Assembly: GCA_965204725.1 (NCBI GenBank)
Contig: OZ242005.1
Location: forward strand, 3,520,001-3,584,000
Direction: 5' to 3'
DNA from: Candidatus Latescibacterota bacterium
Lineage (GTDB): Bacteria; Latescibacterota; UBA2968; UBA8231
DNA: 64,000 nucleotides
In this document: piece after piece, positions 12,832-29,902 of the stretch
Layout: every line of letters begins with the position of its first letter
How positions within the stretch are numbered: the stretch's first letter is position 1
Program-made: the position numbers and the translations under genes
The notes under the pieces: generated by a model
Told to the model about the DNA's origin: nothing
What the model saw: the letters and a program-made list of their open reading frames with translations, nothing else
Databases searched by the model: none

Positions 12832-12837
12832 GGCCGC

Positions 12838-13251: not shown

Positions 13252-14480
13252 AACTCTCCTGCTTTCTCGGCAATCAGCTCCAGCAGCAGCGCGGTCGCTG
13301 CGGCTGCAAACGCTGGATCGTTGATGTTGTGATCGACTTCGCGGACGAGGATGCCCTCGTCCAAGTTGGCTTTGAGGGCGTCGCCAAAGGCGCGGTCGGC
13401 TGCGCGGTCGCAAAACAACTCGCCATCGCCGTCGAGAATCGACACCCCTCTGAGCGGAATGAGCACGCCGACCGGGCCTTGGGCCGCGTTGAGCTTTTCG
13501 GCAAATATCCGGCCCATCAGCGCGTTCTCCTCGGCATTGGTGCGCATCAAGGTCACGGCTGGATTCCACTCGTAAAAGAGCCGCGTACCGTCCTTGTACT
13601 TTGGCGGCACGTCAGCCATGCCGCCAAAATTGGCCATATCCACGCAGCCGGGGACCACTACTTGGGGCAAACCCGCCCGGCCGGCCGCGCTCAAGCGATC
13701 TGGCCCCGCGCTGAAGACGCCGCCGCACACTTCGTCGGCCCACTCGGTGGTGGTAATGTCCAGAACCGCATCCACCAAGCCCTCGGCGATGAGCGACTCC
13801 ATAGTGCGGCCGCCCGTGCCCGTGGCGTGAAAAACCAAGACCTCGTACCCGCTCGCCGACAGGGCCTCGCTGCATGCGTTCACGCATTCGGTGGTGTTGC
13901 CAAACATCGATGCGACGACGATCGGCTTGTCGTCGCCGGCCGGGGCTGGCTCGGCCTCAACCATGCCGCAGATCGCGCCCGCGGCCCGCGTGAAAATTAC
14001 CCGCGAAATCCGATTGACCCCAGCCACATCCACAATTGACGGAATGAGCACGACGTCCTTGCTGCCCACGTACGCGGCCGTGTCGCCGGCCGCCACGGTC
14101 GAAACGCACACTTTGGGAACTCCCACCGGCAGGGCGCGCATGGCCGCCGTCACCACGCTGCTGCCGCCGGACCCACCCATGCCGACAATACCGTCAAACC
14201 GGCCCTCGGCGTACCCTTGCTCCGCCACCTTGGCCGCGCCCTCCCCCATAGCCTTCATGGCGGCACCGCGGTCGCCAGCCGCACGCAACGACTCCAGCGA
14301 CGCGCCAGCCGCCGCGGCCACCTCGCTGGCAGCCACATCCACCCCAAAGGCTTCGCACCCGCCCAGAACGCCCGTGTTCACGGCCAGCACTTCGTGGCCG
14401 CGAGCCAAAATCTGCTCGCGCAAGAAGGCGTACTCCACGCCCTTTGTGTCAAACGCCCCAACCATCATAATTGTAGCCAT
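13248..14480 (-). CDS. Tm-1-like ATP-binding protein (UPF0261)
   Basis: GAFDTKGVE, GGSGGS, ALPVGVPKVCVST, SMFGNTT, FHATGTGG and NINDPAFA. Confidence 0.9.
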   Translation of the reverse strand: MATIMMVGAFDTKGVEYAFLREQILARGHEVLAVNTGVLGGCEAFGVDVAASEVAAAAGASLESLRAAGDRGAAMKAMGEGAAKVAEQGYAEGRFDGIVGMGGSGGSSVVTAAMRALPVGVPKVCVSTVAAGDTAAYVGSKDVVLIPSIVDVAGVNRISRVIFTRAAGAICGMVEAEPAPAGDDKPIVVASMFGNTTECVNACSEALSASGYEVLVFHATGTGGRTMESLIAEGLVDAVLDITTTEWADEVCGGVFSAGPDRLSAAGRAGLPQVVVPGCVDMANFGGMADVPPKYKDGTRLFYEWNPAVTLMRTNAEENALMGRIFAEKLNAAQGPVGVLIPLRGVSILDGDGELFCDRAADRAFGDALKANLDEGILVREVDHNINDPAFAAAATALLLELIAEKAGEL

Positions 14481-14514
14481 AACGGCCTCCTAAGATAGTG
14501 CCTGACCCTTTGGA

Positions 14515-16749
14515 TCAGCGGCTTTGAGCAAAGCGCCGCAACCGGAGCGCGTTCATCACCACCGACACCGACGAAAAGGCCATCGCTAGGCTCGCCAGCA
14601 TCGGATTGAGCAGCGGGCCGCCGAACAGGTGTAGTGCGCCCGCGGCCACCGGAATGCCCGCGGCATTATAAAAAAATGCCCAGAACAAATTCTGCCTTAT
14701 GGTCCGCACGACCGCTCGGCTCAGTTCAATAGCCCGCGCCACATCCGCCAACCGACTGTGCATCAGCACCACCGGCGCCGACGCGGCCGCCACATCCGTC
14801 CCCGTGGCAAAGGCCATGCCCACATCGGCCGCGGCCAGTGCCGGCGCGTCGTTGATCCCATCGCCGACCATGGCGACGCAACGGCCCTCGGCCTGCAATG
14901 CCTGCACAACCGCCGCCTTGTCTGCGGGCAAGACACCGGCATGTACGGTCTCAATCCCCACTTGACGCGCCACGGCTTCAGCGGCCGGACGCCTGTCGCC
15001 GGTGAGCATCACCACCTCCAAGCCGCATTGACGCAATCGAACCACGTCGTCCTTGCTCTGCGGACGGGGGCGGTCGGCCAAAGACACGCGGCCTATCAGC
15101 GACCCGGCGACCGCGACCCACACGACGGTAGCACCAGCCGCCGGATCGCGATCTTCGTCTATGCGAACTCCCACTCCCGCCATCATGGCGCGATTGCCCA
15201 CCGCCACATCCTCGCCTTCCACCTCGGCCCGCGCCCCCTTGCCCGGGCTCGCCACCACTTCGCTCGCCTTCGGCACGGCCAAGTCCCGCTCGACCGCAGC
15301 CGTCACAATCGCCGCAGCGAGCGGATGCTCCGAGCCGCGCTCCACGGCTGCGGCCAAGCTCAGCACCTCGTCGGCGTGGCCTCCGTTTAAGGGCTCCACT
15401 CCGACTACCTGCGGCCGTCCTTCGGTAATCGTGCCGGTTTTGTCCAGCACCACGGCATCTACTTTGTGCGCCGTTTCCAGTGCTTCTGGGCTTTTGAACA
15501 AGATGCCTAAACGCGCACCTCGGCCCGTGCCGACCATAATGGCGGCCGGCGTGGCCAAGCCCAAGCTGCACGGGCAGGCGATGATCAACACGGCCACAAA
15601 AACCTGCAACGCAAAGCTCAAACCCTCCCCGGCCCACAGCCAACCCACTCCGGCCACCAAGCCCAAGGCCAAGACGACCGGCACAAAATATCCGGCGACG
15701 ACATCGGCTAGGCGGGCAATCGGGGCCTTGCCCGCCTGTGCGGCCTCGACTAAGCGCACCATTTGCATCAGCAGCGCGTCCCCGGCCCCCCGCGTTGCAC
15801 GCACCACGAGCGCACCCGCGCCGTTGAGGCTGCCGCCGGTCACGGCATCGCCCGGGGCCTTGGCCGCCGGCAGCGACTCGCCGGTCAGCAGCGACTCATC
15901 CACCGTAGAATTTCCTGCGATGACTTCGCCGTCGGCTGGGACGCGCTCGCCCGGGCGCACGCGCAGACAGTCTCCCACCGCGATGGCGTCGGCTGCAATT
16001 TCCCGCTCTCCATCGCCTTCGACTAACACCGCCTTGTCGGGCCTGAGTTGCAGCAGTGAGCCTATGGCCTCCTCGGCCCGCAACCGCGAGCGCGCTTCGA
16101 GATAGCGGCCCATCAGCATAAAGGTGACGATCGTGGCAACCGACGGGAAATAGGAGTCAAACGCCGCGACCGTCCCCACGGCCACGGCTCCCAACCCCCA
16201 AGCACTGTAAGCCCAAGCCGCGGCCGTGCCAATGGCGATTAGCGAAAACATGTTGGGGCGGCCTCGCCACAAAGCCTGCCCGCCCTCGGCGTAGATCGAG
16301 CGGCCAACCCACAGCACCGGCAGCACCAACAGCAGGTGCAAAACGCCCACTCGTAGCGGATGCTGTTCCAAAGACAACGCCGCAACCGATCCGCCCATCT
16401 GCTCGGCCATCTCCACCGCAAAGAGCGGCAGCCAAAACGCAGCGGCCCACCGCAAGGCCCCGGCCTGCTCGGCCAGCGCGGCCCGCTTGCGCGCCTGCCG
16501 CCTAGCCGCCCCTTCGGCCTCGGGTGCTTGCGGCCGTGCCGCAAACCCCGCTTTTGCCACGGCCACGGCAATGCTTTCCTCATCTACGGCCGCCGGGTCA
16601 AAGCGCACGGCCATCTGCTCGGTCGCCAAGTTCACGTCGGCCTTTTCGACGCCGGCCAAGCCAGACACCTGCTGCTCGACCTGCCGCACACAGCCCGCGC
16701 AGTGCATGCCCTCAATGGCAAAATGCTGCTCTCTACCGTTTTCCGTCAC
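14515..16749 (-). CDS. copA: Copper-type P1B heavy-metal ATPase
   Basis: GMHCAGC metal-binding domain, TGES, IACPCSLG, DKTGT, SEHPLA, GDGINDAP, YN and MAFSS; GTG start at 16749. Confidence 0.93.
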   Translation of the reverse strand: MTENGREQHFAIEGMHCAGCVRQVEQQVSGLAGVEKADVNLATEQMAVRFDPAAVDEESIAVAVAKAGFAARPQAPEAEGAARRQARKRAALAEQAGALRWAAAFWLPLFAVEMAEQMGGSVAALSLEQHPLRVGVLHLLLVLPVLWVGRSIYAEGGQALWRGRPNMFSLIAIGTAAAWAYSAWGLGAVAVGTVAAFDSYFPSVATIVTFMLMGRYLEARSRLRAEEAIGSLLQLRPDKAVLVEGDGEREIAADAIAVGDCLRVRPGERVPADGEVIAGNSTVDESLLTGESLPAAKAPGDAVTGGSLNGAGALVVRATRGAGDALLMQMVRLVEAAQAGKAPIARLADVVAGYFVPVVLALGLVAGVGWLWAGEGLSFALQVFVAVLIIACPCSLGLATPAAIMVGTGRGARLGILFKSPEALETAHKVDAVVLDKTGTITEGRPQVVGVEPLNGGHADEVLSLAAAVERGSEHPLAAAIVTAAVERDLAVPKASEVVASPGKGARAEVEGEDVAVGNRAMMAGVGVRIDEDRDPAAGATVVWVAVAGSLIGRVSLADRPRPQSKDDVVRLRQCGLEVVMLTGDRRPAAEAVARQVGIETVHAGVLPADKAAVVQALQAEGRCVAMVGDGINDAPALAAADVGMAFATGTDVAAASAPVVLMHSRLADVARAIELSRAVVRTIRQNLFWAFFYNAAGIPVAAGALHLFGGPLLNPMLASLAMAFSSVSVVMNALRLRRFAQSR

Positions 16750-19336: not shown

Positions 19337-20521
19337 ATGATTCCGCGCCCACAGCCCATTGATCGTTTGCATACGGCCCTGTCCAGAAGCCCGTTGGTAC
19401 TGCTCGCCGGCCCGCGCCAATGCGGCAAAACCACCCTCGCCCGCGAGTTCGTGCGGGAGGATTCGGCCAACTACTTCGATTTGGAGGATCCGGTCAGTCT
19501 CGCTCGGCTCGACCAGCCAATGACCGCGTTAGAGACGCTGCGCGGCCTCGTCGTCATAGACGAAGTGCAGCGGCGACCGGACTTGTTTCCGGTTCTGCGG
19601 GTGCTGGCGGACCGCCGCGACGCACCGGCCCGATTCCTCATCTTGGGGAGCGCGTCCGGCGACTTGTTGCGCCAGTCTTCGGAGAGCCTAGCCGGACGGG
19701 TTGAGCACCTTACCCTCGGCGGCTTTCAGCTAGGCGAGGTGGGCACTGACCAAGCCGGTACTCTGTGGCTGCGCGGCGGTCTGCCGCGGTCGTACCTCGC
19801 AGCCGACGACGCTGCAAGCCACCAATGGCGCAAGGACTTCATTCAGACCCTGCTGGAGCGCGACATGCCCCAATGGGGAGCGCGGACCCCGGCTGTTGCG
19901 CTGCATCGCTTCTGGACCATGCTCGCCCACTATCACGGGCAAACTTGGAACGCGGCCGCGCCGGCCCGCGCCTTGGACGTGAGCGCATCTACAACGCGGC
20001 ACTATCTCGATCTGCTGACCGATGCCTTCATGATTCGCCAATTGCAGCCTTACTACGCGAACATCGCCAAGCGGCAAGTCAAGGCACCCAAAATCTATCT
20101 GCGCGACAGCGGCCTATTGCACCAGTTGCTCGCCATTCGGACGGAGGGCGAACTGATGAATCATCCCAGCCTGGGCGCGTCGTGGGAGGGTTTTGTCATC
20201 GAGCAGTTGCTTGCCTTGCTGCAACCCGAGGAGGCCTTTTTCTGGAGCACTCATCAGGGGGCTGAAATAGACCTCGTGTTGCGCCAGAATGGCCGCTGGT
20301 TAGGCGTCGAATGCAAGCGCACGGACGCGCCGCGCCTGACGCGCTCCATCCACACTGCCCTCGACGATCTAAAGCTCGAACGGGTCATTATCGTGTACCC
20401 CGGCCAAAAGTCATACGCCCTCAACGCGCAGGTCAATGTCGTGCCATTGCGCGTACTCGGCACCGCACAGGATGCGGGCGTCGGCTATGAAGCATTCACA
20501 GGAGTAGAAACGGCGCGGTGA
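19337..20521 (+). CDS. AAA+ ATPase (AAA_14) with DUF4143 / PD-(D/E)xK C-terminus
   Basis: GPRQCGKTT, IDEVQ, LGSAS, ESLAGR, PKIYLRDSGL and EIDLV...GVECK. Confidence 0.92.
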   Translation: MIPRPQPIDRLHTALSRSPLVLLAGPRQCGKTTLAREFVREDSANYFDLEDPVSLARLDQPMTALETLRGLVVIDEVQRRPDLFPVLRVLADRRDAPARFLILGSASGDLLRQSSESLAGRVEHLTLGGFQLGEVGTDQAGTLWLRGGLPRSYLAADDAASHQWRKDFIQTLLERDMPQWGARTPAVALHRFWTMLAHYHGQTWNAAAPARALDVSASTTRHYLDLLTDAFMIRQLQPYYANIAKRQVKAPKIYLRDSGLLHQLLAIRTEGELMNHPSLGASWEGFVIEQLLALLQPEEAFFWSTHQGAEIDLVLRQNGRWLGVECKRTDAPRLTRSIHTALDDLKLERVIIVYPGQKSYALNAQVNVVPLRVLGTAQDAGVGYEAFTGVETAR

Positions 20522-20549: not shown

Positions 20550-21638
20550 TTACTTTCGCCCTGTAAGTTTGTGCATGATCGCTTCAAGCGGCCCTAGCTT
20601 GTAGCGGGCTAGCCATAGGTGTGAGAACACGACGCCGACTACGGAAAATGCGGTGGCCGCAAACAACGCCCGGGGCAACGTCTGTGCAGTACCCATCCAA
20701 CCCACGGCTTCCAGCACCGACATGCCAAGCACCACGTGAGCCACGTATAGGGTAAGGGAAAGCTGCCCCGTTCTCACGAACGGACGAATCCAAGCGGCGT
20801 CCTCATATCGTTCGCCAAGCGCGACGGAGGCTGCGACGACGGCACTCGCTGTGCCAACTCCTGCGATCATGTAGAGTGGCATCGGAGGCATCGCGCTAGT
20901 TCCGAAGATCGCGACGACAATCTCCCGCTCAGCAGCACCAACTCCTGCTGAGAGCGCATGCACCAAGAACCAACTGATGCCCTCGGCCGCCAGAGCTGCC
21001 CCGAGACCCCAAGCGAAGACGCGCCAGCGGACGGAACGGTCCCCCATATCTCGACGGCCAAGGATCATGCCCACGAACAGGAACGCAAGCCACGGAATTA
21101 CCGGATGGAAACCATTGTAAAACAAATGGCGGACCATGCCCGACGGGGTCCAAAAGCCCGCGTACTCCAGTGTATCCCAATCCCACTCTCGCTCGTAATC
21201 CAATGCGAATAACATCACCGCGAAAGCGATCACGAGCAGAGTGCTATACGTCCAGAGTTGACGGGTGGAAGCAGCCAACGCGAAGGCTGCTACTCCTATG
21301 TAAATTCCGTAGAAATGGAGAATGTCGGCGGGGTAAATCGCGGCATAAAGCATGCCGGCGGCGAAGAGAAACAACGCCCGCCTCAGCAGTGTGTTGCGTT
21401 CCTTCGCCACTTGCTCGCGATCGCCCGAGGCACGACCTCTTTGAGATGCTAGAGAGACCCCTACACCAGCAAGGACCACAAAAGTAGCTGCTGCCCGTCC
21501 GTCAAACATGCCGGCTAGGCGGACGAGCCAGTCCGGGCCGTTCTGCTCGGCCCCCATCACGATCTTGAAATTCACGACGACCATGCCAAAGACGGCAAGC
21601 GCTCTGGCAAAGTCATAGCCAATGATTCGCTTTTTCAC
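20550..21638 (-). CDS. DUF418 / HGSNAT-like multipass membrane protein
   Basis: RIIGYDFARALAVFGM, DILHFYG, GQLSLTLYVAH and GPLE; GTG start at 21638. Confidence 0.8.
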   Translation of the reverse strand: MKKRIIGYDFARALAVFGMVVVNFKIVMGAEQNGPDWLVRLAGMFDGRAAATFVVLAGVGVSLASQRGRASGDREQVAKERNTLLRRALFLFAAGMLYAAIYPADILHFYGIYIGVAAFALAASTRQLWTYSTLLVIAFAVMLFALDYEREWDWDTLEYAGFWTPSGMVRHLFYNGFHPVIPWLAFLFVGMILGRRDMGDRSVRWRVFAWGLGAALAAEGISWFLVHALSAGVGAAEREIVVAIFGTSAMPPMPLYMIAGVGTASAVVAASVALGERYEDAAWIRPFVRTGQLSLTLYVAHVVLGMSVLEAVGWMGTAQTLPRALFAATAFSVVGVVFSHLWLARYKLGPLEAIMHKLTGRK

Positions 21639-21711
21639 CTGAGAGACCCCTTGGAGAAAATTTAATCCGTCCTCTGGGCGGTGGAGCAGCGTCCGCAGCC
21701 CCACTGTATAT

Positions 21712-21938
21712 CTACCTAAAACGCAGCTTCCACTCCTCAACCGCGCAGTAGAGGACCGGCACAATCGGCGCGGTTAGCACCACCGCAATCATGCCGCCGA
21801 AGGTGGGAATGGCCATCGGCAGCATGAGGTCTGCGCCGCGTCCACTCGCCGTCAGCACGGGGATCAGTGCCAAGATCGTGGTGGCCACGGTCATCAGACA
21901 GGGGCGGATGCGCCGCACCCCAGCAGCGAGCGCGGCGC
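21712..21938 (-). pseudogene. Duplicated 3' end of cusA (copy of 26059-26280)
   Basis: 21717-21938 aligns gap-free to 26059-26280 with 8 mismatches counted by eye; encodes RRIRPCLMT...EEWKLRFR*. Confidence 0.93.
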
Positions 21939-21983
21939 ATCGACAGCTTTTGCCGAGGCACTTCTTCAGGCTCTGAACTGCGC

Positions 21984-23546
21984 TTAAACAGTTCGCCTCA
22001 AATGGAACAGATCAGGCGATCGGCGGTCCCGTTCAAAAAGCGTTTGCCAATCCAACGCTAAAAGCAACCCAAACAGCTTCTCTTCTTTTAGCGTCGTCCA
22101 CTCTGTTCCGAACCATATCTCGGCCAATTCCCGTAAGCGAAATGGTCCCTTCGCTCCTCTTGCCATCAGATAGGCATATACCTCAGAGAGCTTGTTAAGA
22201 CGGAGTTGTCTCCCGTCTGCGATGCCCGCTCGCTGAGTATAGGTATATTCGCCGCCATTTTCGGGGAGTTGCACATCCACGGCCGGAGACCTCTCTCGCA
22301 CGGATTTAGCCAACTTCTTCCTCGCGGAGTCATCACCGTGTACGAAAAAGCATGTGCGCGGACGCAGTTTTTCGACCAATTCCGTCAGTTCTCTCTGATC
22401 CGCGTGGGCCGAAAGCGAGTATTGCTTCACGTCACACTCCACACTCACCTCCTGTCCATCAAGATTCAGGACACGCTCATCCTGCAACTTGCGCCCAGGA
22501 GTTCCTTCGGCCTGATAGCCTGTAAAAGCTATCAGGTTCTTCGGATCACCAGCTAAACGCTTGGCGTAATAATTCTTCGATACACCACCGTTCAACATCC
22601 CCGAAGATGCCACGATACAACAGGGAGGTCCTGACAAAATGCGATCGCGATGACCCTTTGAATCAACCCTCTTTACGAAAGCTGAATAAAAAATATCCTC
22701 GCTGCCTTTCGCTTTGCATTGCAAGGAAGGCGAGAGATCGTCAACAAAACGCGAATACACATCATTGACCTTTTGCACCATCCCGTCAACATACACCGGA
22801 ATCTGCTTCTGTTCCATGTGGCCCTTCAAGATCTGAAGGACCTCCTGAGAACGTGCCACGGCAAACGCTGGGATCAACACTTTGCCGCCTGCTTCAACCA
22901 CTTCGACCACATCCCGTACAAGCGCAGCCTCTTCTTGAGCGCGATCTTTATGCAGGCGACCGCCATAAGTCGATTCCATCACCATCACATCGGGGCGACA
23001 CCACTCTGGAATAACCATGCCGGGAATAGTCAACTGATCGGCAACCGATACATCACCCGTCAGCAGAATACTTTCCCGCTTGCCTTGGATGTAGATCATT
23101 GCAGCGCCCAAAATGTGACCGGCACGAATCCACGTAGCTTTCACGCCGTCGCATATCTGTACGGGTTCCATATACCGCACTAATTCCATACGGCTCAAGG
23201 CTTCACGGACATCGTTAGATAGCCTAGGAGACTCGCGTTCTTCCCGTCTCACAGCATCGTCTAACAACACCTGTGTAATATCTTTCGTCGCATGCGTACA
23301 ATACACCTTTTCGGGCAACCTGTTCTCTTTTACAAGCACAGGCAGAGCACCCGTGTGGTCGCTATGAGCGTGGGTCAACAGTAGAGCGTCAGGTTTGTCC
23401 AAAGCACCCAAATCAGGCCGCTTTGAATTTTTCCCAGGTCCCATTCGGATGCCTGCATCTACCAGAATACGGCATCCAGCGATCTCAATTAACGTACAGG
23501 AAGCACCAACCTCGTTGGCACCTCCGAAGAAACGTAGCTTGATCAT
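21984..23546 (-). CDS. MBL-fold beta-CASP nuclease (CPSF73/Ysh1-like)
   Basis: GGANEVGASC, THAHSDH, AGHILG, TGD, MESTYG, PAFAVARSQE, ASSGML, SAHAD and VHG; extra C-terminal ~75 aa. Confidence 0.9.
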   Translation of the reverse strand: MIKLRFFGGANEVGASCTLIEIAGCRILVDAGIRMGPGKNSKRPDLGALDKPDALLLTHAHSDHTGALPVLVKENRLPEKVYCTHATKDITQVLLDDAVRREERESPRLSNDVREALSRMELVRYMEPVQICDGVKATWIRAGHILGAAMIYIQGKRESILLTGDVSVADQLTIPGMVIPEWCRPDVMVMESTYGGRLHKDRAQEEAALVRDVVEVVEAGGKVLIPAFAVARSQEVLQILKGHMEQKQIPVYVDGMVQKVNDVYSRFVDDLSPSLQCKAKGSEDIFYSAFVKRVDSKGHRDRILSGPPCCIVASSGMLNGGVSKNYYAKRLAGDPKNLIAFTGYQAEGTPGRKLQDERVLNLDGQEVSVECDVKQYSLSAHADQRELTELVEKLRPRTCFFVHGDDSARKKLAKSVRERSPAVDVQLPENGGEYTYTQRAGIADGRQLRLNKLSEVYAYLMARGAKGPFRLRELAEIWFGTEWTTLKEEKLFGLLLALDWQTLFERDRRSPDLFHLRRTV

Positions 23547-23700
23547 GACTTCTCCTTTTCACAGTTGATCTCACAGGGACGATTCTATATCGCCCTGCTA
23601 GCATCTTGAAAGGCGCGTCATAGCACGATCCTAAAAGGATCAGAATGCGACTATTGAGCCGCGAAGTGCGACGCATCGAGAAAAAATATGAGGCGAATTG

Positions 23701-23743
23701 GTAGGGGGTGACCGATGAAGGAAATACAGCGGTCACCCCCTAC
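23701..23743 (-). terminator. 14-bp stem hairpin (terminator or processing site)
   Basis: GTAGGGGGTGACCG-N15-CGGTCACCCCCTAC, 7 nt after the microprotein stop; no strong U-tract. Confidence 0.55.
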
Positions 23744-23750
23744 TGATCAA

Positions 23751-23921
23751 TCACTTGCCCTTGCCTTTGGGGCTCTGTTGGTCCTGACTTTTACGCGATT
23801 GCCAATCATTGGGTCTCTGATTGTATTTTCGCCCTTGCCAATAAACATCGTTATTGGGATTCAACTGATTGGCGCGATTGTCAGCACCAGCTTTACCGCC
23901 TCCGCTACGGGATTTAGCCAT
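23751..23921 (-). CDS. 56-aa basic microprotein (MAKSRSGGGKAGADNRANQLNPNNDVYWQGRKYNQRPNDWQSRKSQDQQSPKGKGK)
   Basis: Translated by hand (below the ORF-track cutoff); strong RBS AAAGGAGGTG upstream of the ATG; hairpin downstream. Confidence 0.75.
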   Translation of the reverse strand: MAKSRSGGGKAGADNRANQLNPNNDVYWQGRKYNQRPNDWQSRKSQDQQSPKGKGK

Positions 23922-23968
23922 CTGTCATCACCTCCTTTCTCATGGGAATTTATCGCCTCACGGGAACA

Positions 23969-25714
23969 CTATGCTTTCCAATTGAGACGATCATCTTTCT
24001 CTCTTGTTCGATGTAGTTCTTTTCGACGTGTTCGCATAGCACCTGCCTCATCAATTTCTTTTCCAAGCGTCAAAAGATGAGCTTGGCGAAGCCACCAAAA
24101 CGCCTCAAATAGGGGACGACGCGGCGATGCACCGCGCTCTAAATTCGGTTTTCTCCGGTCTATATGCCGAATCTGCCTGTGTGCTCTTTTAGCCAATTTT
24201 CGGCACTCTTCATCGGGATCATTTTTAGAGAGCCAAAACAGTGTTCTATGAGCCCTTCCGCCGGGATTAACGCGCAGTGCCGTCAACGCCTGCACGTAGC
24301 ACTGCCGCCATACAGGCCGCGGTTCTACAAACTCTTCACGATTAGCATTTGTATCGTTTTTTTGGGTTTTGAGTCGTCCAAGGCAAAACTTGGCGAGCTC
24401 TTCACGCAAATCCTGCAACTGCGGGTCTCGGTCCAGTTCTGCCCGCAGGTTCTGAGGATACATGGCGATTTCGATCCACAGAGGTATTTCACTATACGGA
24501 TGAGGAGGGGCCTCTCTTCCAAGTTCGCCCCAAGGGCGAAGATCGGATGTAACGGCCGGCACGTTCATCTCCGTAAAGGCCAGCAATAAAGGCTTCAGGC
24601 GTTTCCACGGGTCGGCAAAAATTAGCAAAATATCAAAAGCCTTTCTGTAAAAATCGGACACTTCTCCTATCGAATTTTTCTCCTCAAAGGCTTTTGGGCT
24701 ATCCCGTAACACCGCCCGCAACATTCCTATATGCCTAGCGGCACTTTCGATAAGCCGACTTCTCAATTCTGGAGAGAGTTCGGATTCCAACCCGCCCATG
24801 CTACTGCTGTAAATTATCTTGGCTAATCGCCACCAAGCTTTAGTCAATGAGGAGCATTCCTGATTCGACTCTGGTGCTTTCGCTTCCAGAAGTTCCAAAA
24901 ATGGAATTAATTCACGTGCAACAATCCGCCATCCGTCATTCAGGGAATCTAAACCGGCCACATTCAAGGCATAACCAATAGCATTCAGAAGTCCGAGAAT
25001 CTCATCTCCTAAAACACCTTCTGGAACATCAGAAAAATGTTCCAATAACGTGTCCAAGCGGATTGTGCCGTGATGGTCTGTGCCTGAACGAAATCGCTGG
25101 ATTAACCAGAATTCGAGCTGTTTGGGATCTTCAAAATCACTGCTGGACCAGCTTCGTTGAATGGGACTCAAGAGATCAAAATCAACGACCTGCACTAAGG
25201 GCATACCATTTGGAAAAAGAAATCGAAGCAAATCATCAAGTTTATGAATAGACGACTTTAGTCTGTTCCAATCCAAACGCTCAGCGCAAAAATTTGCATG
25301 CTCTTGAAACTCGTCAGCCCATTGCGGAATATCCCAGACGCCGTCCGATCTCACAGGCTTAGGATTGGACTGGATCGTCTCACCTAAATACACAGGTCCA
25401 AAGCCAAGCATAGTGCTAAAAAGAAACGCCAAGCGGGTTTGACGATCTTTCTCAACCTGAACTTGTCCTTCTAAGTCTTTCAAGATGCTAGGCAGGACGT
25501 ATTCAAAACTGTCCTCAAAACCTTCTTTGAAGATAGAGGCACTATTAGAATCAGAGTTGCCAAAACAGTCGGGACGTTCAAAGACTTGTACTAGCCATCC
25601 CTGATCCGCCTCGCAGAAACCAGCATCTTGAAGGTGCTGTTTCAGTTCTTCTGAGTAAGAAAAATCTTTTGAAGGAAATACGAGACCGTTCCGGCCATTT
25701 TCAGCTTTGCTCAT
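23969..25714 (-). CDS. Hypothetical ~580-aa helical protein
   Basis: Long ORF in AT-richer DNA; ATG at 25714 with GGAG RBS; HEAT-like C-terminus (NDPDEECRKLA...LFEAFWWLRQAHL). Confidence 0.75.
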   Translation of the reverse strand: MSKAENGRNGLVFPSKDFSYSEELKQHLQDAGFCEADQGWLVQVFERPDCFGNSDSNSASIFKEGFEDSFEYVLPSILKDLEGQVQVEKDRQTRLAFLFSTMLGFGPVYLGETIQSNPKPVRSDGVWDIPQWADEFQEHANFCAERLDWNRLKSSIHKLDDLLRFLFPNGMPLVQVVDFDLLSPIQRSWSSSDFEDPKQLEFWLIQRFRSGTDHHGTIRLDTLLEHFSDVPEGVLGDEILGLLNAIGYALNVAGLDSLNDGWRIVARELIPFLELLEAKAPESNQECSSLTKAWWRLAKIIYSSSMGGLESELSPELRSRLIESAARHIGMLRAVLRDSPKAFEEKNSIGEVSDFYRKAFDILLIFADPWKRLKPLLLAFTEMNVPAVTSDLRPWGELGREAPPHPYSEIPLWIEIAMYPQNLRAELDRDPQLQDLREELAKFCLGRLKTQKNDTNANREEFVEPRPVWRQCYVQALTALRVNPGGRAHRTLFWLSKNDPDEECRKLAKRAHRQIRHIDRRKPNLERGASPRRPLFEAFWWLRQAHLLTLGKEIDEAGAMRTRRKELHRTREKDDRLNWKA

Positions 25715-26041
25715 GCTACACTCCAAGCTATATCCTGTGGACAATCTGGGTAAAACCCAAATTGCGAACCCGTCGGATTCCCGACCGAAGGACTATCAGG
25801 AACGGAAGAGATGCAAAAGGCATCAAAGCAACGAGGTTCTCATCTGCCTAAAACTTTTCCTATCCTGTGATCCTTGTCAACCCCTAACGATTTTTTTGTT
25901 AAGCCAAAACAGTCTCATAAATATCTGAGGCTATCAGGGGCAGACCGGACACCGGCCCTCCTGCGTTCACCTGCGACTTTGCCTTCGTGCCGCCGCCTGT
26001 ACTGCATATATAACACCCCTACCAACGAAATGTGTCACCTC

Positions 26042-29000
26042 TCACCAGCGAGCGCGCTTAAACCGCAGCTTCCACTCCTCAACCGCGCAGTAGAGCACCG
26101 GCACAATCGGCGCAGTTAGCACCACCGCAATCATGCCGCCGAAGGTGGGAATGGCCATCGGCAGCATGAGGTCTGCGCCGCGTCCACTCGCCGTCAGCAC
26201 GGGGATCAGCGCCAAGATCGTAGTGGCCGCAGTCATCAGACAGGGGCGGATGCGCCGCACCCCAGCGGCGAGCGCGGCGCGACGCATCGCCTCGACAGTC
26301 GCTGGTTTTTGCGCCCTAAAGACTTGGCCCAGATAGGTCGCCGCGATCACGCCGTTGTCCGAGGCAATGCCAAACAGCGCGAGAAAACCCACCCACACGG
26401 CCACGCTCAAGTTCAAAGGACGGATGTGGAAGAGGGCGCGCATCTCCGTGCCGAAGACGGAGCAATCCAAAAACCATTCCTGCCCGTAGAGCCACAGCAT
26501 GGCAAAGCCGCCAGCCCACGCCACCGCAACCCCGGAAAAGACCATCAGAGCCGTGACCGCGTTGCCAAACTGGAAATAGAGAATGAGGAAAATTGTCGCC
26601 AGCGCGAGCGGCAGCAGCACGTTGAGCTTCTTCTGCGCCCGCAGTTGGTTTTCGTAACTACCGGCGAAGGTATAGCTGACGCCGGTCTCCAGCACGAGAT
26701 CGCCGCTGGCCCTTTTGCTGGCCAAATGCGCTCGGCATGCTTCCACCACATCGACCTCGGCGTACCCCGGCTTTTTGTCGAAGAGCACATAGCCGAGCAA
26801 AAACGTATCCTCGCTCTTGATGACCTGAGGGCCGCGTACGTAGCGAATCTCGGCCAGCTCGCCCAAGGGGATCTGCGCCCCGTCCGGCGCGGGCACCAAA
26901 ATTCGCACCAGTTCCTCGACGCTGTCGCGCAACTCTCGCAGGTAGCGCACTCGCACTGGGTAGCGCTCGCGGCCTTCCACCGTGGTGGTGACCCGCTTGC
27001 CCCCGATGGCGATCTCAATTACGTCCTGCACCTTTTGCAGGGGGATGCCGTGGCGGGCAATGGCCTCGCGGTCAATGTGGATCTCCAAGTAGGGCTTGCC
27101 GATGATGCGGTCGGCGTTGACGGTCGCCGCCTCAACCGCGGGCACTTCCTTGAGCAAGCGCTCCAGCACCAAGCCGGCGCGCTCAATGGCCTCCAAGCTA
27201 GGGCCTTTGATCTCAATGCCCATTGGGGCGCGCATTCCGCTCTGCAACATGACGAGCCGCGCGGCAATCGGCTGCAACTTCGGCGCCGAAGTAGAGCCGG
27301 GAATCTGGCCGGCCCGGGCGATCGCCGCCCATATATCGTCGGGGCCTTGGATGCCCGGCCACGCCGCCCGGCCCGGATTGAGCGCGAGATCCAAGGGCGG
27401 ACGCCACAAGCGGAAGGGCCGCCCATCGGCGTTGGGCACGAGGCGGCCGGCCTCGTCGCGCAGGTAGCGGCCCGGCACCGTGTAGGGCGCGCCATCCGGG
27501 GCGGGCGCGGGCGTACCATCCGGGGCGCGAAACAGGTCTGGGACGCGCTCGTCAAAAGCGAATAGCAGGCGGCGGCCGGCCTCGTCGGTGAGGTATTCCG
27601 CACGATAGTTGACGATAGTCTCAATCATGGAAATCGGTGCGGGGTCCAGCGGGGTCTCCGCCCGCCCGAGCTTGCCCACTGCGGACTCCACTTCTGGTAT
27701 CTGCGCAATGGCCGCGTTTTGCTTTTGCAGGACGTCGAGCACCTCGCCGATGGAGGCGTGGGGCATGGTCGTCGGCATCCACAGGAAAGAACCTTCGTCG
27801 AGGGGGGGCATAAACTCTTTGCCCAACCCGGGCAGCGCCTCGGCGAGGGCCATAAAGGGCGCTGTGTTGCGTAGGGAGGGCGGCACGACGCCGAAGACGC
27901 GGGCAAAACCCAGCCACGCGGACGCCCCGGCCAGCAGCAGCAACAAGGGGAAGAGCAGGGCCAAGCCCTTGTGATCCAAGCACCACCGCAGCACGCGGGG
28001 GAACGCGACTTGCAAGACGCGAAAAAGGGCCAACAGGCCGCCGATCAATCCGGCAGCAAAGAGAAAGTTGCGCCATCCGCCCTTTTCCGGGCCGAGGGGC
28101 AACCAGTGTTCGGCCAACACGACTACTACTCCGCAGGCCGCGGCGGCAATGGCCCCTCGCGCCACCCACAAGCGCACTCGCTCTGGTACGCGGGCGGCGA
28201 GTAGGTGATACGTCCCAATGGCTATCAGCAGCAGGCCGATCCACTTCGACAGAACCAAGGCTACCCCGAGGCCACAGACAGCCCAAAGGCCGGGTGCCCA
28301 ACGACTCAGACGCACGGCAAACGCGCAGTGCGCCAAGGCCGGCAAAACCGTCAGCGACAGCCACACCGCGGCCAACAGCGCAAAGGTCTTGGTAAAGGCC
28401 AGCGGCGCGAAGAGCTTGCCCTCGGCCCCTTCCATGGCAAAGACGGGCAAAAAGCCCACTACCGTGGTGAGCACGGCCGTCAGCACGGCTCCGCCGACCT
28501 CGCGCGTGGCGCGGAATACCACTTCCAAGCGGTCGTCCTCTGCGTCGGCATCCTCTAAGTGCTTGAGGATGTTCTCGCTGATGACGATGCCCATATCGAC
28601 CATGGTGCCGATGGCAATGGCAATGCCGGAGAGGGCGACTATATTGGCTTCCACGCCAAAGACCTTCATGGCGGCGAAGCAGGCGAGCACGGCCAGCGGC
28701 AACAGCCCAGAGACCAGCGCGGCCCCGCGCAGATTCATCACCAGCACCAAGACCACGATCACCGTTACCAACACTTCCTCGCTCAGCGCACGCTCCAGCG
28801 TGCCCAAGGTCTCCTCAATCAAGCCGGATCGATCGTAAAAGGGAATCACTTGTACTTGGCTGACCCGCCCGTCGGGCAGGGTTTTCTGGGGCAAACTCGG
28901 GGCGATTTCCGCGATCTTGGCTTTAACGCTCTCAATGGCTGCTAGGGGGTTGGTGCCAAAGCGCGCCACCACCACGCCGCCGACCACCTCGGCGCCTTCC

Positions 29001-29902
29001 TTGTCCAACGCGCCGCGCCGCAGGGCCGGCCCTAGCGCGACCCGCGCGACGTTTTTGACGTAAATCGGGACGTTGTTCCGCGCTTTAATGACGGCGTTTT
29101 CAAGGTCGGCTAGTCCTTTGACAAAGCCGATGCCGCGGATGACGTACTCGGCTCGATTCAACTCGACCGTGCGCGCCCCCACGTCTCGGTTGGACATGCG
29201 CACCGCGTGGAAGACCTCGTCGAGCTGCACCCCATAGGCGCGCAGCGCGTCTGGGTTGACGTCGATTTGGTATTCCTGCACGAACCCGCCCACGGACGCC
29301 ACTTCGCTGACCCCCTCGGCCGCCAACAGAGCATAGCGCACCTGCCAGTCCTGAATGCGGCGCAGCTCGTGCAGATCCCAGCCGCCGGTGGGCGCGCCCT
29401 GTTCGTCGCGGCCTTCTAAGGTGTACCAGAACACTTGCCCCAAGGCCGTTGCGTCCGGTCCTAGGGCCGGCTGGACGCCCTCGGGCAGGAGGCCGGCCGA
29501 CAGGCTGTTGAGTTTCTCGAGGATGCGGGAACGCGACCAATAAAAATCAACCTCTTCGGCAAAAATTACATAAATGCTCGAAAAGCCAAACATCGAGAAG
29601 CTGCGGATCGTCTCGACGCCCGGGACGCCCAAAAGCGCCGTGGTCAGCGGGTAGGTCACCTGATCTTCCACGTCTTGCGGCGAGCGACCCGGCCACTCGC
29701 TGAAGACGATCTGTTGGTTCTCGCCGATGTCTGGAATCGCATCTACGGGCACGGGGTCGCGCGGCAGCCATGCCAGTTCCCAAGTAAAGGGGGCGACCGC
29801 AAGGCCCCAAGCCACGAGGCCGACCAACATGAGCGCGGCGACCAATTTGCGCGTGAGAAAGAAGCGCACCACGCGGTCGAGCAGCGAGTTTTGCCCTGCC
29901 AT
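26042..29902 (-). CDS. cusA: CusA/SilA heavy-metal efflux RND permease
   Basis: PVDAIPDIGENQ, GIAIAIGTMVD, EFMPPLDEG, LWMPTTMP and RRIRPCLMT. Confidence 0.92.
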   Translation of the reverse strand: MAGQNSLLDRVVRFFLTRKLVAALMLVGLVAWGLAVAPFTWELAWLPRDPVPVDAIPDIGENQQIVFSEWPGRSPQDVEDQVTYPLTTALLGVPGVETIRSFSMFGFSSIYVIFAEEVDFYWSRSRILEKLNSLSAGLLPEGVQPALGPDATALGQVFWYTLEGRDEQGAPTGGWDLHELRRIQDWQVRYALLAAEGVSEVASVGGFVQEYQIDVNPDALRAYGVQLDEVFHAVRMSNRDVGARTVELNRAEYVIRGIGFVKGLADLENAVIKARNNVPIYVKNVARVALGPALRRGALDKEGAEVVGGVVVARFGTNPLAAIESVKAKIAEIAPSLPQKTLPDGRVSQVQVIPFYDRSGLIEETLGTLERALSEEVLVTVIVVLVLVMNLRGAALVSGLLPLAVLACFAAMKVFGVEANIVALSGIAIAIGTMVDMGIVISENILKHLEDADAEDDRLEVVFRATREVGGAVLTAVLTTVVGFLPVFAMEGAEGKLFAPLAFTKTFALLAAVWLSLTVLPALAHCAFAVRLSRWAPGLWAVCGLGVALVLSKWIGLLLIAIGTYHLLAARVPERVRLWVARGAIAAAACGVVVVLAEHWLPLGPEKGGWRNFLFAAGLIGGLLALFRVLQVAFPRVLRWCLDHKGLALLFPLLLLLAGASAWLGFARVFGVVPPSLRNTAPFMALAEALPGLGKEFMPPLDEGSFLWMPTTMPHASIGEVLDVLQKQNAAIAQIPEVESAVGKLGRAETPLDPAPISMIETIVNYRAEYLTDEAGRRLLFAFDERVPDLFRAPDGTPAPAPDGAPYTVPGRYLRDEAGRLVPNADGRPFRLWRPPLDLALNPGRAAWPGIQGPDDIWAAIARAGQIPGSTSAPKLQPIAARLVMLQSGMRAPMGIEIKGPSLEAIERAGLVLERLLKEVPAVEAATVNADRIIGKPYLEIHIDREAIARHGIPLQKVQDVIEIAIGGKRVTTTVEGRERYPVRVRYLRELRDSVEELVRILVPAPDGAQIPLGELAEIRYVRGPQVIKSEDTFLLGYVLFDKKPGYAEVDVVEACRAHLASKRASGDLVLETGVSYTFAGSYENQLRAQKKLNVLLPLALATIFLILYFQFGNAVTALMVFSGVAVAWAGGFAMLWLYGQEWFLDCSVFGTEMRALFHIRPLNLSVAVWVGFLALFGIASDNGVIAATYLGQVFRAQKPATVEAMRRAALAAGVRRIRPCLMTAATTILALIPVLTASGRGADLMLPMAIPTFGGMIAVVLTAPIVPVLYCAVEEWKLRFKRARW

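Follow-up and report, generated by a model that had tools for sequence, protein, structure and literature searches.

A horizontally acquired gene module, probably antiviral, with exchangeable effector genes behind a conserved structured RNA leader

Genes and boundaries of the low-GC block

The window, i.e. the complete 64-kb stretch of DNA that was analyzed, contains a block with three intact genes at positions 21939-26058. All three genes are located on the minus strand, and the GC content of the block is 0.46-0.52, versus about 0.62. In 5' to 3' order, they encode a large protein of 581 amino acids (c0), a microprotein of 56 amino acids, and a beta-CASP nuclease of 520 amino acids. The module as such had a GC content of 0.49, compared to 0.64 in its flanks, and the same tendency was found over 45 loci, with means of 0.482 for the modules and 0.531 for the flanks. 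A repeat search revealed that the block is flanked on both sides by a 222-nt direct repeat with 96% identity. The left copy (26059-26280) is the 3' end of an intact RND efflux gene of the AcrB/CusA type (26042-29902, Pfam ACR_tran), and the right copy (21717-21938) is a displaced duplicate of this gene end. Because of the atypical GC content and the flanking repeat, the block is regarded as foreign, horizontally acquired DNA. The original prediction had described three co-oriented genes of an island; all three minus-strand ORFs were recovered, their relatives, Pfam matches and invariant motifs characterize them as real genes and not as chance ORFs, and the island character was borne out by the low GC content and the bounding repeat.

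Next to the right repeat copy lies a DUF418 gene (20550-21764), and a PADLOC candidate, PDC-S01, was found 1.4 kb away from the block at 19337-20521. The right repeat copy and the DUF418 gene are both missing from L001, L002, L003, and L007, four related loci that share the insertion site of the window, and the 222-nt repeat is missing in four of the five sister loci with a common site. Although the flanking repeat is present, no integrase or recombinase was found among the ORFs of the window or in the module, and the window contains no integrase gene beside att repeats, the arrangement typical of site-specific-integrase islands. In the lineage of the window, the module was probably introduced by a circular DNA that carried the 3' end of the RND gene and integrated there through single-crossover homologous recombination; an event of this kind would account for the flanking duplication with no integrase involved.

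The constant first gene of the module encodes c0 (23969-25714, minus strand), a member of an undescribed family. The ATG that yields 581 amino acids agrees with the start of all homologues, while a TTG at 25744 would yield 591 amino acids. More than 443 full-length relatives with 58-99% identity were found, and 459 clusters at 50% identity, but searches of Pfam, NCBIfam, PADLOC, and PDB yielded no relative of c0. The AlphaFold (AF2) model had a pLDDT of 90.3 and predicted an all-alpha solenoid, in line with the helical protein originally predicted. Its description as HEAT-like appears to be only loosely right: no Pfam match, to HEAT or otherwise, was obtained at E<=1 for c0, and none for 20 distant family members, Foldseek searches of PDB and BFVD retrieved nothing at E<=1e-3, and the best matches, to designed armadillo proteins and karyopherins, were weak (E>=1.2e-3, TM<=0.30). 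Leads from the Atlas, to HEAT_2 and DUF6138 clusters, reached only 0.88-0.89. The N-terminal half of c0 is acidic and variable, whereas the C-terminal 120 or so amino acids are basic (+13 over residues 461-581), nearly invariant, and the best conserved part of the protein. This pattern is what would be expected of a variable sensing part combined with a conserved output or nucleic-acid-binding part. Pfam and Foldseek revealed neither a recognizable RNA-binding or sensing domain in c0 nor an HTH, WYL, nuclease, or recombinase signature. Within the module, c0 is the likely candidate for a sensor or regulator. The alignment of upstream regions of related loci showed that the 5' untranslated region of its gene (25715-25790, minus strand) is also conserved; it contains a short putative hairpin, GAATCC-N3-GGGTTC, and a second inverted repeat.

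The microprotein (23751-23921, minus strand), designated type A, is preceded by a strong ribosome-binding site, AAGGAGG. It is as basic as had been predicted (net charge +8), rich in Gly, Asn, and Gln, and carries the motif NRANQLNPNN..YW, of which NRANQLNPNN..Y is invariant across 12 loci. At least 5946 relatives were found in the database, typically 70-aa forms with two repeats, and no named protein was among the 120 matches listed. In other loci, type A is replaced by types B or C, so that three unrelated and interchangeable types exist. Microproteins of this kind resemble widespread small hydrophilic proteins, which could point to stress biology instead of immunity. Directly 3' of the stop codon, a 17-bp inverted repeat with 94% complementarity (23701-23743, minus strand) can form a hairpin, and the alignment revealed a hairpin at the same position in other loci. 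It does not qualify as a canonical terminator, as the T-run is offset and a terminator search did not list it.

The third gene (21984-23546, minus strand) encodes a beta-CASP RNase with a metallo-beta-lactamase fold of the CPSF73/aCPSF1/TTHA0252 type. Pfam matches were obtained to Beta-Casp (88.9 bits, cut-off 27.7), to RMMBL (54.7 bits, cut-off 21.6), and also to Lactamase_B_6. Residues D30, H59/H61/D63/H64, H144, D165, E191, H381, and H403 were invariant in an alignment of 43 sequences, verifying the intact metal motifs of the original prediction; they correspond to MBL motifs 1-4 (D, HxHxDH, H, D) and to the beta-CASP motifs, namely A (D/E), B (H), and C (H), and together with the Beta-Casp insertion domain they place the protein among the beta-CASP metallo-beta-lactamase nucleases. 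Phmmer searches of PDB retrieved the CPSF73/aCPSF1/IntS11/TTHA0252 group at E-values of 1e-62 to 1e-48, and the AF2 model (pLDDT 83.5) matched CPSF73 and aCPSF1 in Foldseek with TM values of 0.70-0.76. The fold thus resembles RNA-specific beta-CASP enzymes, and the protein is predicted to be an RNase. Three specific assignments were rejected: aCPSF1 (TIGR03675; 313.3 bits versus a cut-off of 580.2, with only profile positions 175-624 covered and the KH region absent), Cas14 (NF045584; 296.9 versus 800 bits, with neither an array nor cas genes in the window), and RNase J (TIGR00649; 42.3 versus 400 bits). The C-terminal tail of about 75 amino acids (residues 445-520, approximately) is real, as it aligned to residue 504 or further in 22 of the 25 related loci with a nuclease. 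Its predicted topology (H450-462, H471-479, H486-498, E504-506, E513-516; pLDDT 74-85) follows a helix-helix-helix-strand-strand order, which is compatible with a winged helix, and the tail may adopt this fold; it had no PDB sequence match at E<=10 and no match in the Atlas. The closest relatives outside of the module are proteins of 831-849 amino acids with 58% identity and the same tail, which are common in Gemmatimonadota and Latescibacteria and could be housekeeping proteins. Within the module, the nuclease gene is degraded, i.e. fragmented or split, in four of 25 loci (L002, L004, L014, and L016), while c0 is intact there, which would be less typical of a housekeeping gene than of an accessory one. 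None of the three proteins of the window matched PADLOC-DB 2.0 at E<=1, as had been expected if the module were novel.

Related loci and exchangeable downstream genes

The module was compared with 44 related loci, mostly from MAGs of Latescibacterota and Poribacteria, which were collected using c0 as the anchor. The gene for c0 was the first gene in all 44 loci, which is partly by construction since c0 was the search anchor. An effector gene in the same orientation was located downstream of it in the window and in 43 of the 44 loci, the exception being L024, which stops 457 nt past c0. In most of the loci, a microprotein of one of the three types came after c0. This linkage has been kept across at least three different chromosomal contexts, and most genomes contain one copy of the module. 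The downstream gene encoded a beta-CASP RNase in 25 loci (including the four with degraded copies), a prokaryotic viperin, usually together with a kinase, in 17 loci, and the B12 radical-SAM PADLOC candidate PDC-M51A in nine loci (E about 1e-88). Combinations of effectors were found in L011, L016, L019, L026, L028, and L040, and L011, L019, and L028 have a viperin and a beta-CASP RNase within one module. The viperins of the sister loci were recognized by the NCBIfam model viperin_w_prok (323 bits, cut-off 180) and by PADLOC pVip (E 1e-87 to 1e-118), and the kinase downstream matched VakA/PDC-M51B in PADLOC. The right end of the module is conserved as well: blastn of the reoriented window (11683-11761, corresponding to 21954-22032, minus strand) detected the final 48 nt of the nuclease gene and 30 nt downstream in L003 (90%) and L007 (89%), and about 80 nt of this right end are retained in viperin-bearing loci that lack the nuclease.

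These results clarify which parts of the original prediction can be kept. The three families do co-occur elsewhere, as the nuclease follows c0 in 25 loci, mostly with a microprotein in between, but the proposed fixed three-gene system had to be abandoned: nuclease and microprotein can each be exchanged, the former for two other kinds of cargo gene and the latter for two unrelated types. For c0 and the microprotein, the proposed roles of sensor and small regulator stay putative. The claim of an undescribed defence module was upheld in part and by association, through the viperin with its kinase, or PDC-M51A, in the same slot of sister loci. Because antiviral genes occupy the nuclease slot in these loci, a defence role of the module is plausible by association, the evidence being the gene neighbourhood.

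It could be argued that c0, the microprotein, and the nuclease are functionally unlinked neighbours that were acquired independently in a recombination hotspot. The downstream genes and microprotein types have indeed been swapped independently of one another, both the window and L014 have duplicated pieces of the 3' end of the RND gene where cassettes adjoin, and the identities to the window are discordant in L002 (c0 82%, nuclease 56%) and L014 (c0 61%, nuclease 82%). However, 43 of the 44 loci, at different chromosomal sites and in different phyla, agree in gene order, orientation, and spacing, and one leader RNA (see below) is common to all effector types. A correlation was also found between the pairwise identities of c0 and those of the nuclease (Pearson 0.78 over 21 loci, reached in 0 of 2000 permutations), but common descent could be enough to bring it about. 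In view of these data, we regard independent acquisition as very unlikely.

A second possibility is a stress or RNA-metabolism island, in which small hydrophilin-like proteins would accompany an RNase that processes RNA, c0 would be the scaffold, and the viperin and radical-SAM enzymes of sister loci would serve nucleotide metabolism. The microproteins are hydrophilic and rich in Gly and Asn, the type A family is very large across bacteria, and type C nearly reaches the cut-off of a seed-maturation-protein family (21.2 versus 22 bits). Furthermore, the nuclease is as near to CPSF73, aCPSF1, and TTHA0252 as to Cas14, and the same phyla often contain its long-form relatives. On the other hand, the sister-locus viperin passes the antiviral equivalog model of NCBI, both PDC-M51A and the neighbouring PDC-S01 are candidates drawn from defence islands, and the module differs from core metabolism in its atypical GC content, patchy occurrence, exchanged cassettes, and often decayed nuclease. 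A role in stress or RNA metabolism appears quite unlikely.

A conserved structured RNA leader

A conserved structured leader of about 150 nt precedes the downstream effector genes. In the window, the leader of the nuclease gene (23535-23685, minus strand) consists of a closing helix P1, hairpins P2 and P3, which form a three-way junction with it, a variable hairpin P4, and an anti-Shine-Dalgarno stretch, and it ends at the start codon. The anti-Shine-Dalgarno stretch pairs with the ribosome-binding site GAAAGGAG. The covariance model R1 detected the leader of the window with 118 bits (E 1.4e-21), and folding of this single sequence again yielded P1-P4 (z -2.08). At E<=0.01, the leader was found in 37 of the 44 loci as well as in the window; among the seven loci without a match at this threshold, one is cut by the contig end and another lacks the 5' end of the nuclease gene. 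A search of 790 kb yielded 46 matches at E<=1, all on the gene strand, and 44 of these end at the start codon of an effector gene. Loci with two effector units have two leaders, and a scan of the 64-kb window revealed no further copy.

Covariation showed that the leader forms an RNA structure. In the alignment, 94.8% of the cells were paired, versus 36-46% in slid controls, and compensatory changes were found in 11 pairs, versus two to four in the controls; they included three pairs of the helix between the anti-Shine-Dalgarno and Shine-Dalgarno stretches. None of 500 shuffles reached the observed values, but this significance is inflated because the sequences are mutually related, and the slid-partner control is the fairer comparison. 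Among the 726 paired cells, about 50 contain G-U, exclusively on the sense strand, in agreement with an RNA of this strand. No Rfam 15 match was obtained at E<=1 in positions 21500-26500 of the window, and in L003, L011, and L032 the only matches were a TPP riboswitch in the flank of L011 and a togavirus frameshift element below threshold, neither of which overlaps the leader. The leader is thus previously undescribed, and it is the strongest clue to the control of the module. It had been missed in the original prediction.

Could the leader be a metabolite-sensing riboswitch that alone controls the effectors, for example in response to a nucleotide or a nucleotide-derived alarm molecule, with c0 and the microprotein as a separate co-travelling defence or stress pair? 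The P1-P2-P3 core of about 70 nt is joined directly to the anti-Shine-Dalgarno platform, presumably the classic layout of translational riboswitches. In addition, the viperin with its kinase and the B12 radical-SAM enzyme, two of the three kinds of effector, both act on nucleotides, and c0 has no recognizable RNA-binding domain. However, the leader matches no Rfam family at E<=1, and no ligand can be named. Moreover, it lies behind c0 in every locus examined, which would be unnecessary for a purely cis-acting switch, but c0 was the search anchor. Control by a riboswitch alone is considered unlikely.

With one constant gene and, behind it, a series of exchangeable cassettes that each carry a conserved structured element, the arrangement is also reminiscent of a cassette-capturing, integron-like mobile element. 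In this case, c0 would act as a new type of recombinase, with the leader as its recombination site. The flanking duplication in the window and the lack of a known integrase in the module could be reconciled with this idea. Yet an element with G-U pairs on the sense strand only and a ribosome-binding site, which ends at a start codon, is an mRNA leader, and c0 is an alpha-solenoid without a nuclease or recombinase signature. Furthermore, most genomes contain just one copy, and the 222-nt repeat is missing from most sister loci with the common site. Such a mobile element is extremely improbable.

Proposed mode of action and relation to known systems

Our best reading is that the block is a horizontally acquired, modular antiviral cassette, in which translation of the effectors is gated by the leader and c0 is the candidate sensor or regulator; we give this reading as a whole an even chance of being correct. 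The constant part would comprise c0 and the small hydrophilic microprotein, whereas one or two effector units, all with the same leader in front, would make up the variable part. In the resting state, pairing of the anti-Shine-Dalgarno stretch with the ribosome-binding site would keep the effector untranslated. Upon infection, a trans-acting signal would remodel the leader and free the ribosome-binding site; the most likely agent would be c0, which could act, alone or together with the microprotein, through its basic and highly conserved C-terminal block. The RNase, as suggested by its fold and intact active site, would then cut phage or host RNA and thereby stop the infection directly or by abortive infection. 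Since known antiviral genes stand in for the nuclease in related genomes, the block probably represents an antiviral module of a new type.

Several known systems share features with the module. Closest to the pVip system are the 17 sister loci with a viperin behind c0 and the leader, usually together with the thymidylate-kinase-like VakA gene. However, the window lacks a viperin, and c0, the microprotein, and the leader are absent from the PADLOC pVip models; reportedly, they are also not included in the pVip description of Bernheim et al. 2021. Similarly, PDC-M51, a B12 radical-SAM protein with a kinase, is represented by PDC-M51A in the effector slot of nine sister loci and by the viperin-linked kinase, which matches PDC-M51B. 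PDC-M51 is absent from the window and is a candidate system only; we found no paper that names it.

In type VII CRISPR-Cas systems, Cas14 is a beta-CASP/MBL RNase that serves as an immune effector, a role that is proposed for the window nuclease. The likeness extends over residues 2-445 (NCBIfam 297 bits; PDB 8yhd, E 3.6e-56; Foldseek 9j9e and 8z4l), but the C-terminal region differs, and the window contains neither a CRISPR array nor Cas5 or Cas7 genes. The best matches in sequence and structure are CPSF73, aCPSF1 (FttA), IntS11, and TTHA0252. The nuclease has the metal motifs as well as the beta-CASP motifs in common with them, and it contains RMMBL, the domain for RNA specificity. It differs from this group in that the KH domains at the N-terminus of aCPSF1 are missing, the additional tail is present, and the gene lies in a low-GC accessory island and not at a core locus.

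An integron-like cassette system was rejected, as neither the module nor the window contains an integrase and what recurs at the 5' end of each cassette is an mRNA leader on the sense strand, and not a 3' attC site. Translational riboswitches, e.g. of the purine class, combine a three-way-junction aptamer with an anti-Shine-Dalgarno expression platform. The leader has the same junction followed by such a platform, but, in contrast to these riboswitches, it has neither an Rfam match at E<=1 nor a nameable ligand, and a specific protein gene is always alongside. Lastly, BrxR/WYL and CapH-CapP are conserved regulators upstream of diverse defence systems. Although c0 has no kinship with them in sequence or fold, and control of the module apparently operates via an RNA leader and not via a DNA operator, the logic would be the same, namely that one conserved gene is located upstream of interchangeable immune effectors.

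Constant and exchangeable genes

Three intact genes make up the module in the window: c0 (23969-25714, minus strand), which encodes a 581-aa protein, the gene of a basic 56-aa microprotein with a strong ribosome-binding site (23751-23921, minus strand), and the gene of a 520-aa beta-CASP protein (21984-23546, minus strand). With the c0 alignment as the query, 185,579 species genomes were scanned once, which yielded 44 related loci (L001-L044). Because this only genome scan was anchored on c0, leader or effector units that lack c0 escape detection. Nearly all loci stem from Latescibacterota and Poribacteria MAGs, the exceptions being one locus with the label Vicinamibacterales and two without classification, and there is usually one c0 copy per genome. 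The genes are intact and conserved, and clustering of the ORFs revealed a fixed layout, in which c0 comes first, followed in most loci by a microprotein gene and then by one or two co-oriented cargo genes.

The cargo was of three kinds. The beta-CASP RNase was present in 25 of the 44 loci, and four of these copies were damaged (a fragment in L004, a truncated gene in L014, and split genes in L016 and L002). In L016 the two parts of the RNase gene (12086-12907 and 13997-14944) are separated by a 375-aa minus-strand ORF (12915-14040), which may be an insertion sequence. Viperin was found in 17 loci, usually together with a thymidylate-kinase-like gene, and a B12-binding radical-SAM protein in nine. 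The viperin reached 323 bits with the NCBI antiviral equivalog model, versus a cut-off of 180, and matched the PADLOC pVip models with E-values of 1e-87 to 1e-118; the linked kinase matched VakA and PDC-M51B, and the B12 radical-SAM enzyme matched PDC-M51A (about 1e-88). Two of the three effector types are known or candidate antiviral genes. A RiPP cluster with the microprotein as the precursor peptide had been considered for the radical-SAM neighbours, and was rejected because the radical-SAM protein is viperin according to the curated models and because the type of microprotein changes irrespective of which gene lies downstream.

In the first cargo position, the RNase was found in 18 loci as well as the window, viperin was found in 17 loci, and PDC-M51A was found in eight; one locus ends at the end of its contig. 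Combinations were viperin-kinase-RNase (L011, L019), viperin-RNase (L028), and PDC-M51A with RNase (L016, L026, L040). The cargo differs at one and the same chromosomal site among related genomes: behind an RND efflux gene, the RNase occurs in the window, L001, L002, and L014, and viperin in L003 and L007. Likewise, L030 and L034 carry viperin in a Poribacteria context in which L037, L038, and L044 carry the RNase and L041 carries PDC-M51A. About 80 nt of the RNase 3' end remain behind the viperin cassette in L003 and L007, and a tail fragment remains in L004, which indicates that some single-cargo forms are deletions from multi-cargo forms.

The pairwise identities of c0 and the RNase were correlated (Pearson 0.78 for 21 loci, a value reached by 0 of 2000 permutations). 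L002 and L014, both of which are clearly discordant, were omitted from this test because their RNase ORFs are split. The correlation argues that the module is mostly inherited as a unit with occasional exchange of cassettes, and common ancestry by itself might also yield it. Beyond the 44 loci, the source contig was equal in size to that of a listed c0 entry for 15 of 86 listed short-form RNase entries, a comparison made by hand that is a rough proxy. The three-gene combination that had originally been proposed is borne out in part: the RNase accompanies c0 in 25 of the 44 loci and a microprotein is present in most, but the RNase and the type of microprotein are both exchangeable.

The module is compositionally foreign. 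In the window, the GC content is 0.46-0.52 across 21939-26058 and about 0.62 on either side, and in most loci the module lies below its flanks (mean 0.482 versus 0.531), with the widest gap in high-GC hosts such as that of the window. The block is bounded by a direct repeat of 222 nt with 96% identity (21717-21938 and 26059-26280), which represents the 3' end of an AcrB/CusA-type RND efflux gene (26042-29902). The order in the window is RND gene end, module, second RND gene end, and DUF418 gene. Such an order would be expected if a circular DNA carrying the RND 3' end plus the module had recombined by a single crossover into a chromosome containing RND-DUF418, for which an integrase would not be required. 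Neither an integrase nor a transposase nor a CRISPR array was found in the 64-kb window. Both repeat copies are equally distant from the sister loci, so that donor and recipient copies are indistinguishable. The same insertion site is used in L001, a Candidatus Latescibacterota MAG contig with 91% identity to the window over 10.7 kb, and in L002, L003, and L007, but neither the right repeat copy nor the DUF418 gene occurs in these four loci. Among the loci at that site, the right RND-end copy and the DUF418/acyltransferase-3 membrane gene (20550-21938) are specific for the window. L014 carries shorter duplicates of the RND end at two cassette junctions (7699-7781 and 11151-11189) and an additional 523-aa ORF between the RND gene and c0.

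Flanking direct repeats were also considered as a general signature of insertion. However, repeats of flanking DNA are confined to the window, L014 (39 nt), and L021 (44 nt), and a general signature is thus unsupported. The repeats in L029 and L032 are not flanking DNA, but represent the c0 upstream region and are derived from a degenerate second c0 copy, which lies with the duplicated upstream region behind the PDC-M51A cargo (L029, 11929-12339; L032, 6008-6493). Short repeats in L006, L033, and L034 are of uncertain meaning.

The remainder of the window is ordinary chromosome, with recA, recX, alaS, dnaX, recR, ferrochelatase, a CusB/OEP efflux set, and a P-type metal ATPase. Several further features were observed in the flanks. 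A 394-aa AAA_14 + DUF4143 ATPase (19337-20521, plus strand), 1.4 kb from the module, matched the PADLOC single-gene candidate PDC-S01 (E 7.5e-88), and similar proteins (cluster c23) lie near the module in L001 (a fragment), L007, L021, and L031. A gene group at 9961-11526 contains a HigB-like toxin gene of the RelE family (11194-11526, minus strand), an adjoining 146-aa ORF without a Pfam match (10745-11182, minus strand), and the gene of a HATPase_c_4 protein (9961-10794, minus strand) that weakly matched the N-terminal regions of PADLOC pAgo-associated models. Around a 164-aa ORF without a Pfam match (36394-36885), the GC content dips a second time, to a lesser extent (0.539, 36001-37000). 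The flank of L011 contains an ordinary TPP riboswitch (1958-2062, plus strand; 60.3 bits, above the gathering score), which is unrelated to the module.

Proteins of the module

The c0 protein matched no Pfam, NCBIfam, or PADLOC model, and the same was true for 20 distant members of its family. The family is large: a word-indexed search yielded more than 443 near-full-length relatives, and an exhaustive search yielded 459 clusters at 50% identity. Conservation is mostly located within residues 260-575 (approximately). The AlphaFold model, based on a 60-sequence alignment, is confident and all-alpha (pLDDT 90.3, pTM 0.88), in agreement with the helical protein of about 580 aa that had been read from the DNA. 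The HEAT-like label given to it was not confirmed: Foldseek found nothing at E<=1e-3 in the PDB and BFVD, the best matches being designed armadillo proteins and karyopherins with TM<=0.30, a profile search against PDB sequences yielded only designed helical repeats (E>=0.012), and the ESM Atlas contained only leads below 0.9. A HEPN-like Rx4-6H motif, sought by eye, was rejected, as the candidate arginine is not invariant and Foldseek gave no HEPN structure. The N-terminal 260 residues are acidic (net -21). A basic character (net +13) is seen in the last 120 residues, where most invariant Arg, His, and Trp positions are located. Tandem forms with two diverged c0 copies in a single reading frame occur in L042 (6297-9806) and in protein P0124 (1195 aa).

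A microprotein is present in about 38 of 45 loci (counted by eye), and three unrelated types were distinguished, namely type A (window), the Gly-rich type B with a WPSKTG.PSGGGR.NAP motif, and type C, which is near the seed-maturation-protein family. Hybrid and double forms were also noted (L025, L035). Type A contains an invariant NRANQLNPNN..YW motif and matched no Pfam or NCBIfam model, and the motif family comprises at least 5946 matches, small proteins without a functional name (P0394-P0513 among the matches listed). Among the matches listed, the relatives are mostly 70-aa proteins with two DNRANQ[LM]NPNNDAYW.SRG repeats, e.g. in a Flavobacterium. Prediction of a complex of c0 (60-row alignment) and the microprotein (12-row alignment) gave 0.00 versus a mark of 0.32, which is evidence neither way.

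The nuclease matched the Pfam families Beta-Casp, RMMBL, and Lactamase_B_6, and all catalytic residues are invariant in an alignment of 43 sequences. The original prediction of a beta-CASP nuclease with intact metal motifs was thus borne out, and the protein is, as judged from its sequence, a bona fide RNA-type beta-CASP enzyme. The closest solved relatives are archaeal aCPSF1, human CPSF73, IntS11, Cas14, and Thermus TTHA0252 (E 1e-62 to 1e-48), on which the AlphaFold model (pLDDT 83.5) superposes with TM 0.70-0.76. The nuclease scores under the curated cut-offs of aCPSF1, Cas14, and RNase J and is, therefore, assigned to none of these families; it is predicted to be a new beta-CASP RNase member outside the curated subfamilies tested. 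The extra tail of about 75 aa also stood: residues 445-520 (approximately) were modelled as three helices and two strands, a topology compatible with a winged helix. This label found no confirmation in sequence searches of the ESM Atlas and PDB, which yielded no match. The nearest relatives outside the module are proteins of 831-849 aa (P0321-P0392), in which the entire 520-aa unit, with its tail, is present at 58-59% identity and is followed by about 290 additional C-terminal residues without a Pfam match. Where the sources name it, this long form stems from Gemmatimonadota and Latescibacteria.

A structured leader RNA upstream of the cargo genes

The nucleotide sequence upstream of the cargo gene is conserved, whereas the frame in which it is read differs among the loci, and this region is thus noncoding. 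Its structure was derived from an alignment of 26 copies with RNAalifold. A closing helix, P1, and the hairpins P2 and P3 form a three-way junction of about 70 nt, which is accompanied by a variable hairpin, P4. The ribosome-binding site of the cargo gene, GAAAGGAG, is paired with a CCUUUC stretch directly 3' of P1. Pairing was found in 94.8% of 726 cells, versus 36-46% when the partners were slid by 1-3 columns, and two-sided changes were found in 11 of 29 pairs, versus 2-4 in the slid controls. The observed pairing and covariation values were reached by 0 of 500 shuffles of the aligned sequences, which are mutually related. For example, the pair 31-47 is A-U nine times, C-G eight times, and U-A six times. 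G-U pairs account for about 50 cells; read from the opposite strand, these would be A-C mismatches, and the structure thus belongs to the sense RNA. Taken together, the structure of the leader is conserved, including the pairing with the ribosome-binding site.

A covariance model of the leader, R1, was built from the alignment and used to scan 790 kb, comprising the window and the 44 loci. All 46 matches at E<=1 were on the gene strand, and 44 of them terminate at the cargo start codon, including 20 outside the model-building set. Two matches each were obtained in the two-cargo loci L011, L016, L019, and L028, and no further match was found elsewhere in the 64-kb window. With a threshold of E<=0.01, 37 of the 44 loci contain the leader, as does the window (23535-23685, 118 bits), and c0 is linked to an effector unit in every complete locus. 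The window copy alone folds into the same helices (-47.6 kcal/mol, z -2.08). The leader has no match in Rfam 15.

Three other readings of this region were rejected. A leader peptide (ORF starting MRRTSRLNS) is unlikely because the otherwise conserved upstream ATG is missing in five loci (L005, L008, L010, L023, L028); furthermore, the frames diverge after indels and the changes track base-pairing, not codons. A sigma-70 promoter for the nuclease gene had been read by eye in the P4 region, but this region is not conserved and the promoter scan lists none there. An integron-like attC site, as a reading of the repeated element, does not agree with a structure that belongs to the sense-strand mRNA leader and ends at the start codon.

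The 5' untranslated region of c0 (window 25715-25790, minus strand) is also conserved, at the same place in most loci. Two inverted repeats are found in it, the first of which forms a short hairpin (GAATCC-N3-GGGTTC) that appears to vary in a compensatory manner. R1 had no match in this region.

A possible role in defence

We rate the module as a candidate defence-island module with exchangeable effectors. In the mechanism that we envisage, the leader would hold the effector untranslated until it is opened by a signal, which c0 would deliver via the conserved and basic block at its C-terminus. Sensing would be the task of the N-terminal half of c0, which is acidic and variable, the microprotein may be involved, and the released effector of the window would be an RNase that cuts phage or host RNA. 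The chances that this is a linked antiviral module with a leader-gated effector appear to be about even. The specific step, opening of the leader by c0, is a tentative proposal that we regard as rather unlikely. The same doubt applies to the fuller reading, a new class of immune modules in which the interchangeable effectors, namely the beta-CASP RNase, viperin, and the B12 radical-SAM enzyme, are all locked by one undescribed RNA element, and in which c0, as the infection sensor, opens this lock by binding to the RNA, perhaps with the microprotein as a co-factor or decoy. The main rival also starts from the conserved leader, which would be a small-molecule riboswitch, and treats c0 as a passenger or as a protein with a separate function; we consider this improbable. 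Non-immune readings and readings without a link between the genes share most of the remaining probability.

PADLOC recognises no protein of the module, as had been expected for a novel system. Within the scope of our searches, which covered databases, open-access full text, and bioRxiv, there is no description of the c0 family, of the leader RNA, or of a single leader that serves viperin, PDC-M51A, and a beta-CASP RNase alike. Nothing was found in open-access full text and bioRxiv on the microprotein motifs, on "PDC-M51", or on beta-CASP joined with anti-phage defense, and the entries listed in these sources for prokaryotic viperin with beta-CASP, Poribacteria with viperin, or viperin with riboswitch and anti-phage concerned other topics.

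If the proposed role is true, a large unannotated family (459 clusters, no structural relative) would gain an immune role in a module that spreads among uncultured phyla (Latescibacterota, Poribacteria, and Vicinamibacterales-labelled MAGs). The leader would be, to our knowledge, the first cis-regulatory RNA common to several unrelated antiviral effectors, viperin included, and the first riboregulator operated by a protein, or by an alarm molecule, that is dedicated to such effectors. It would also offer a direct handle on the silencing of costly effectors until they are needed. In addition, CPSF73-type beta-CASP RNases would join the stand-alone antiviral effectors as a new class outside CRISPR type VII. 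Even without a defence role, the leader RNA and the c0 family are well-defined new objects, and the module is compact (about 4 kb), so that its synthesis and testing in a laboratory host should be easy. With a conserved gene in the first position, its layout is similar, in logic only, to that of defence regulators located upstream of swappable effectors.
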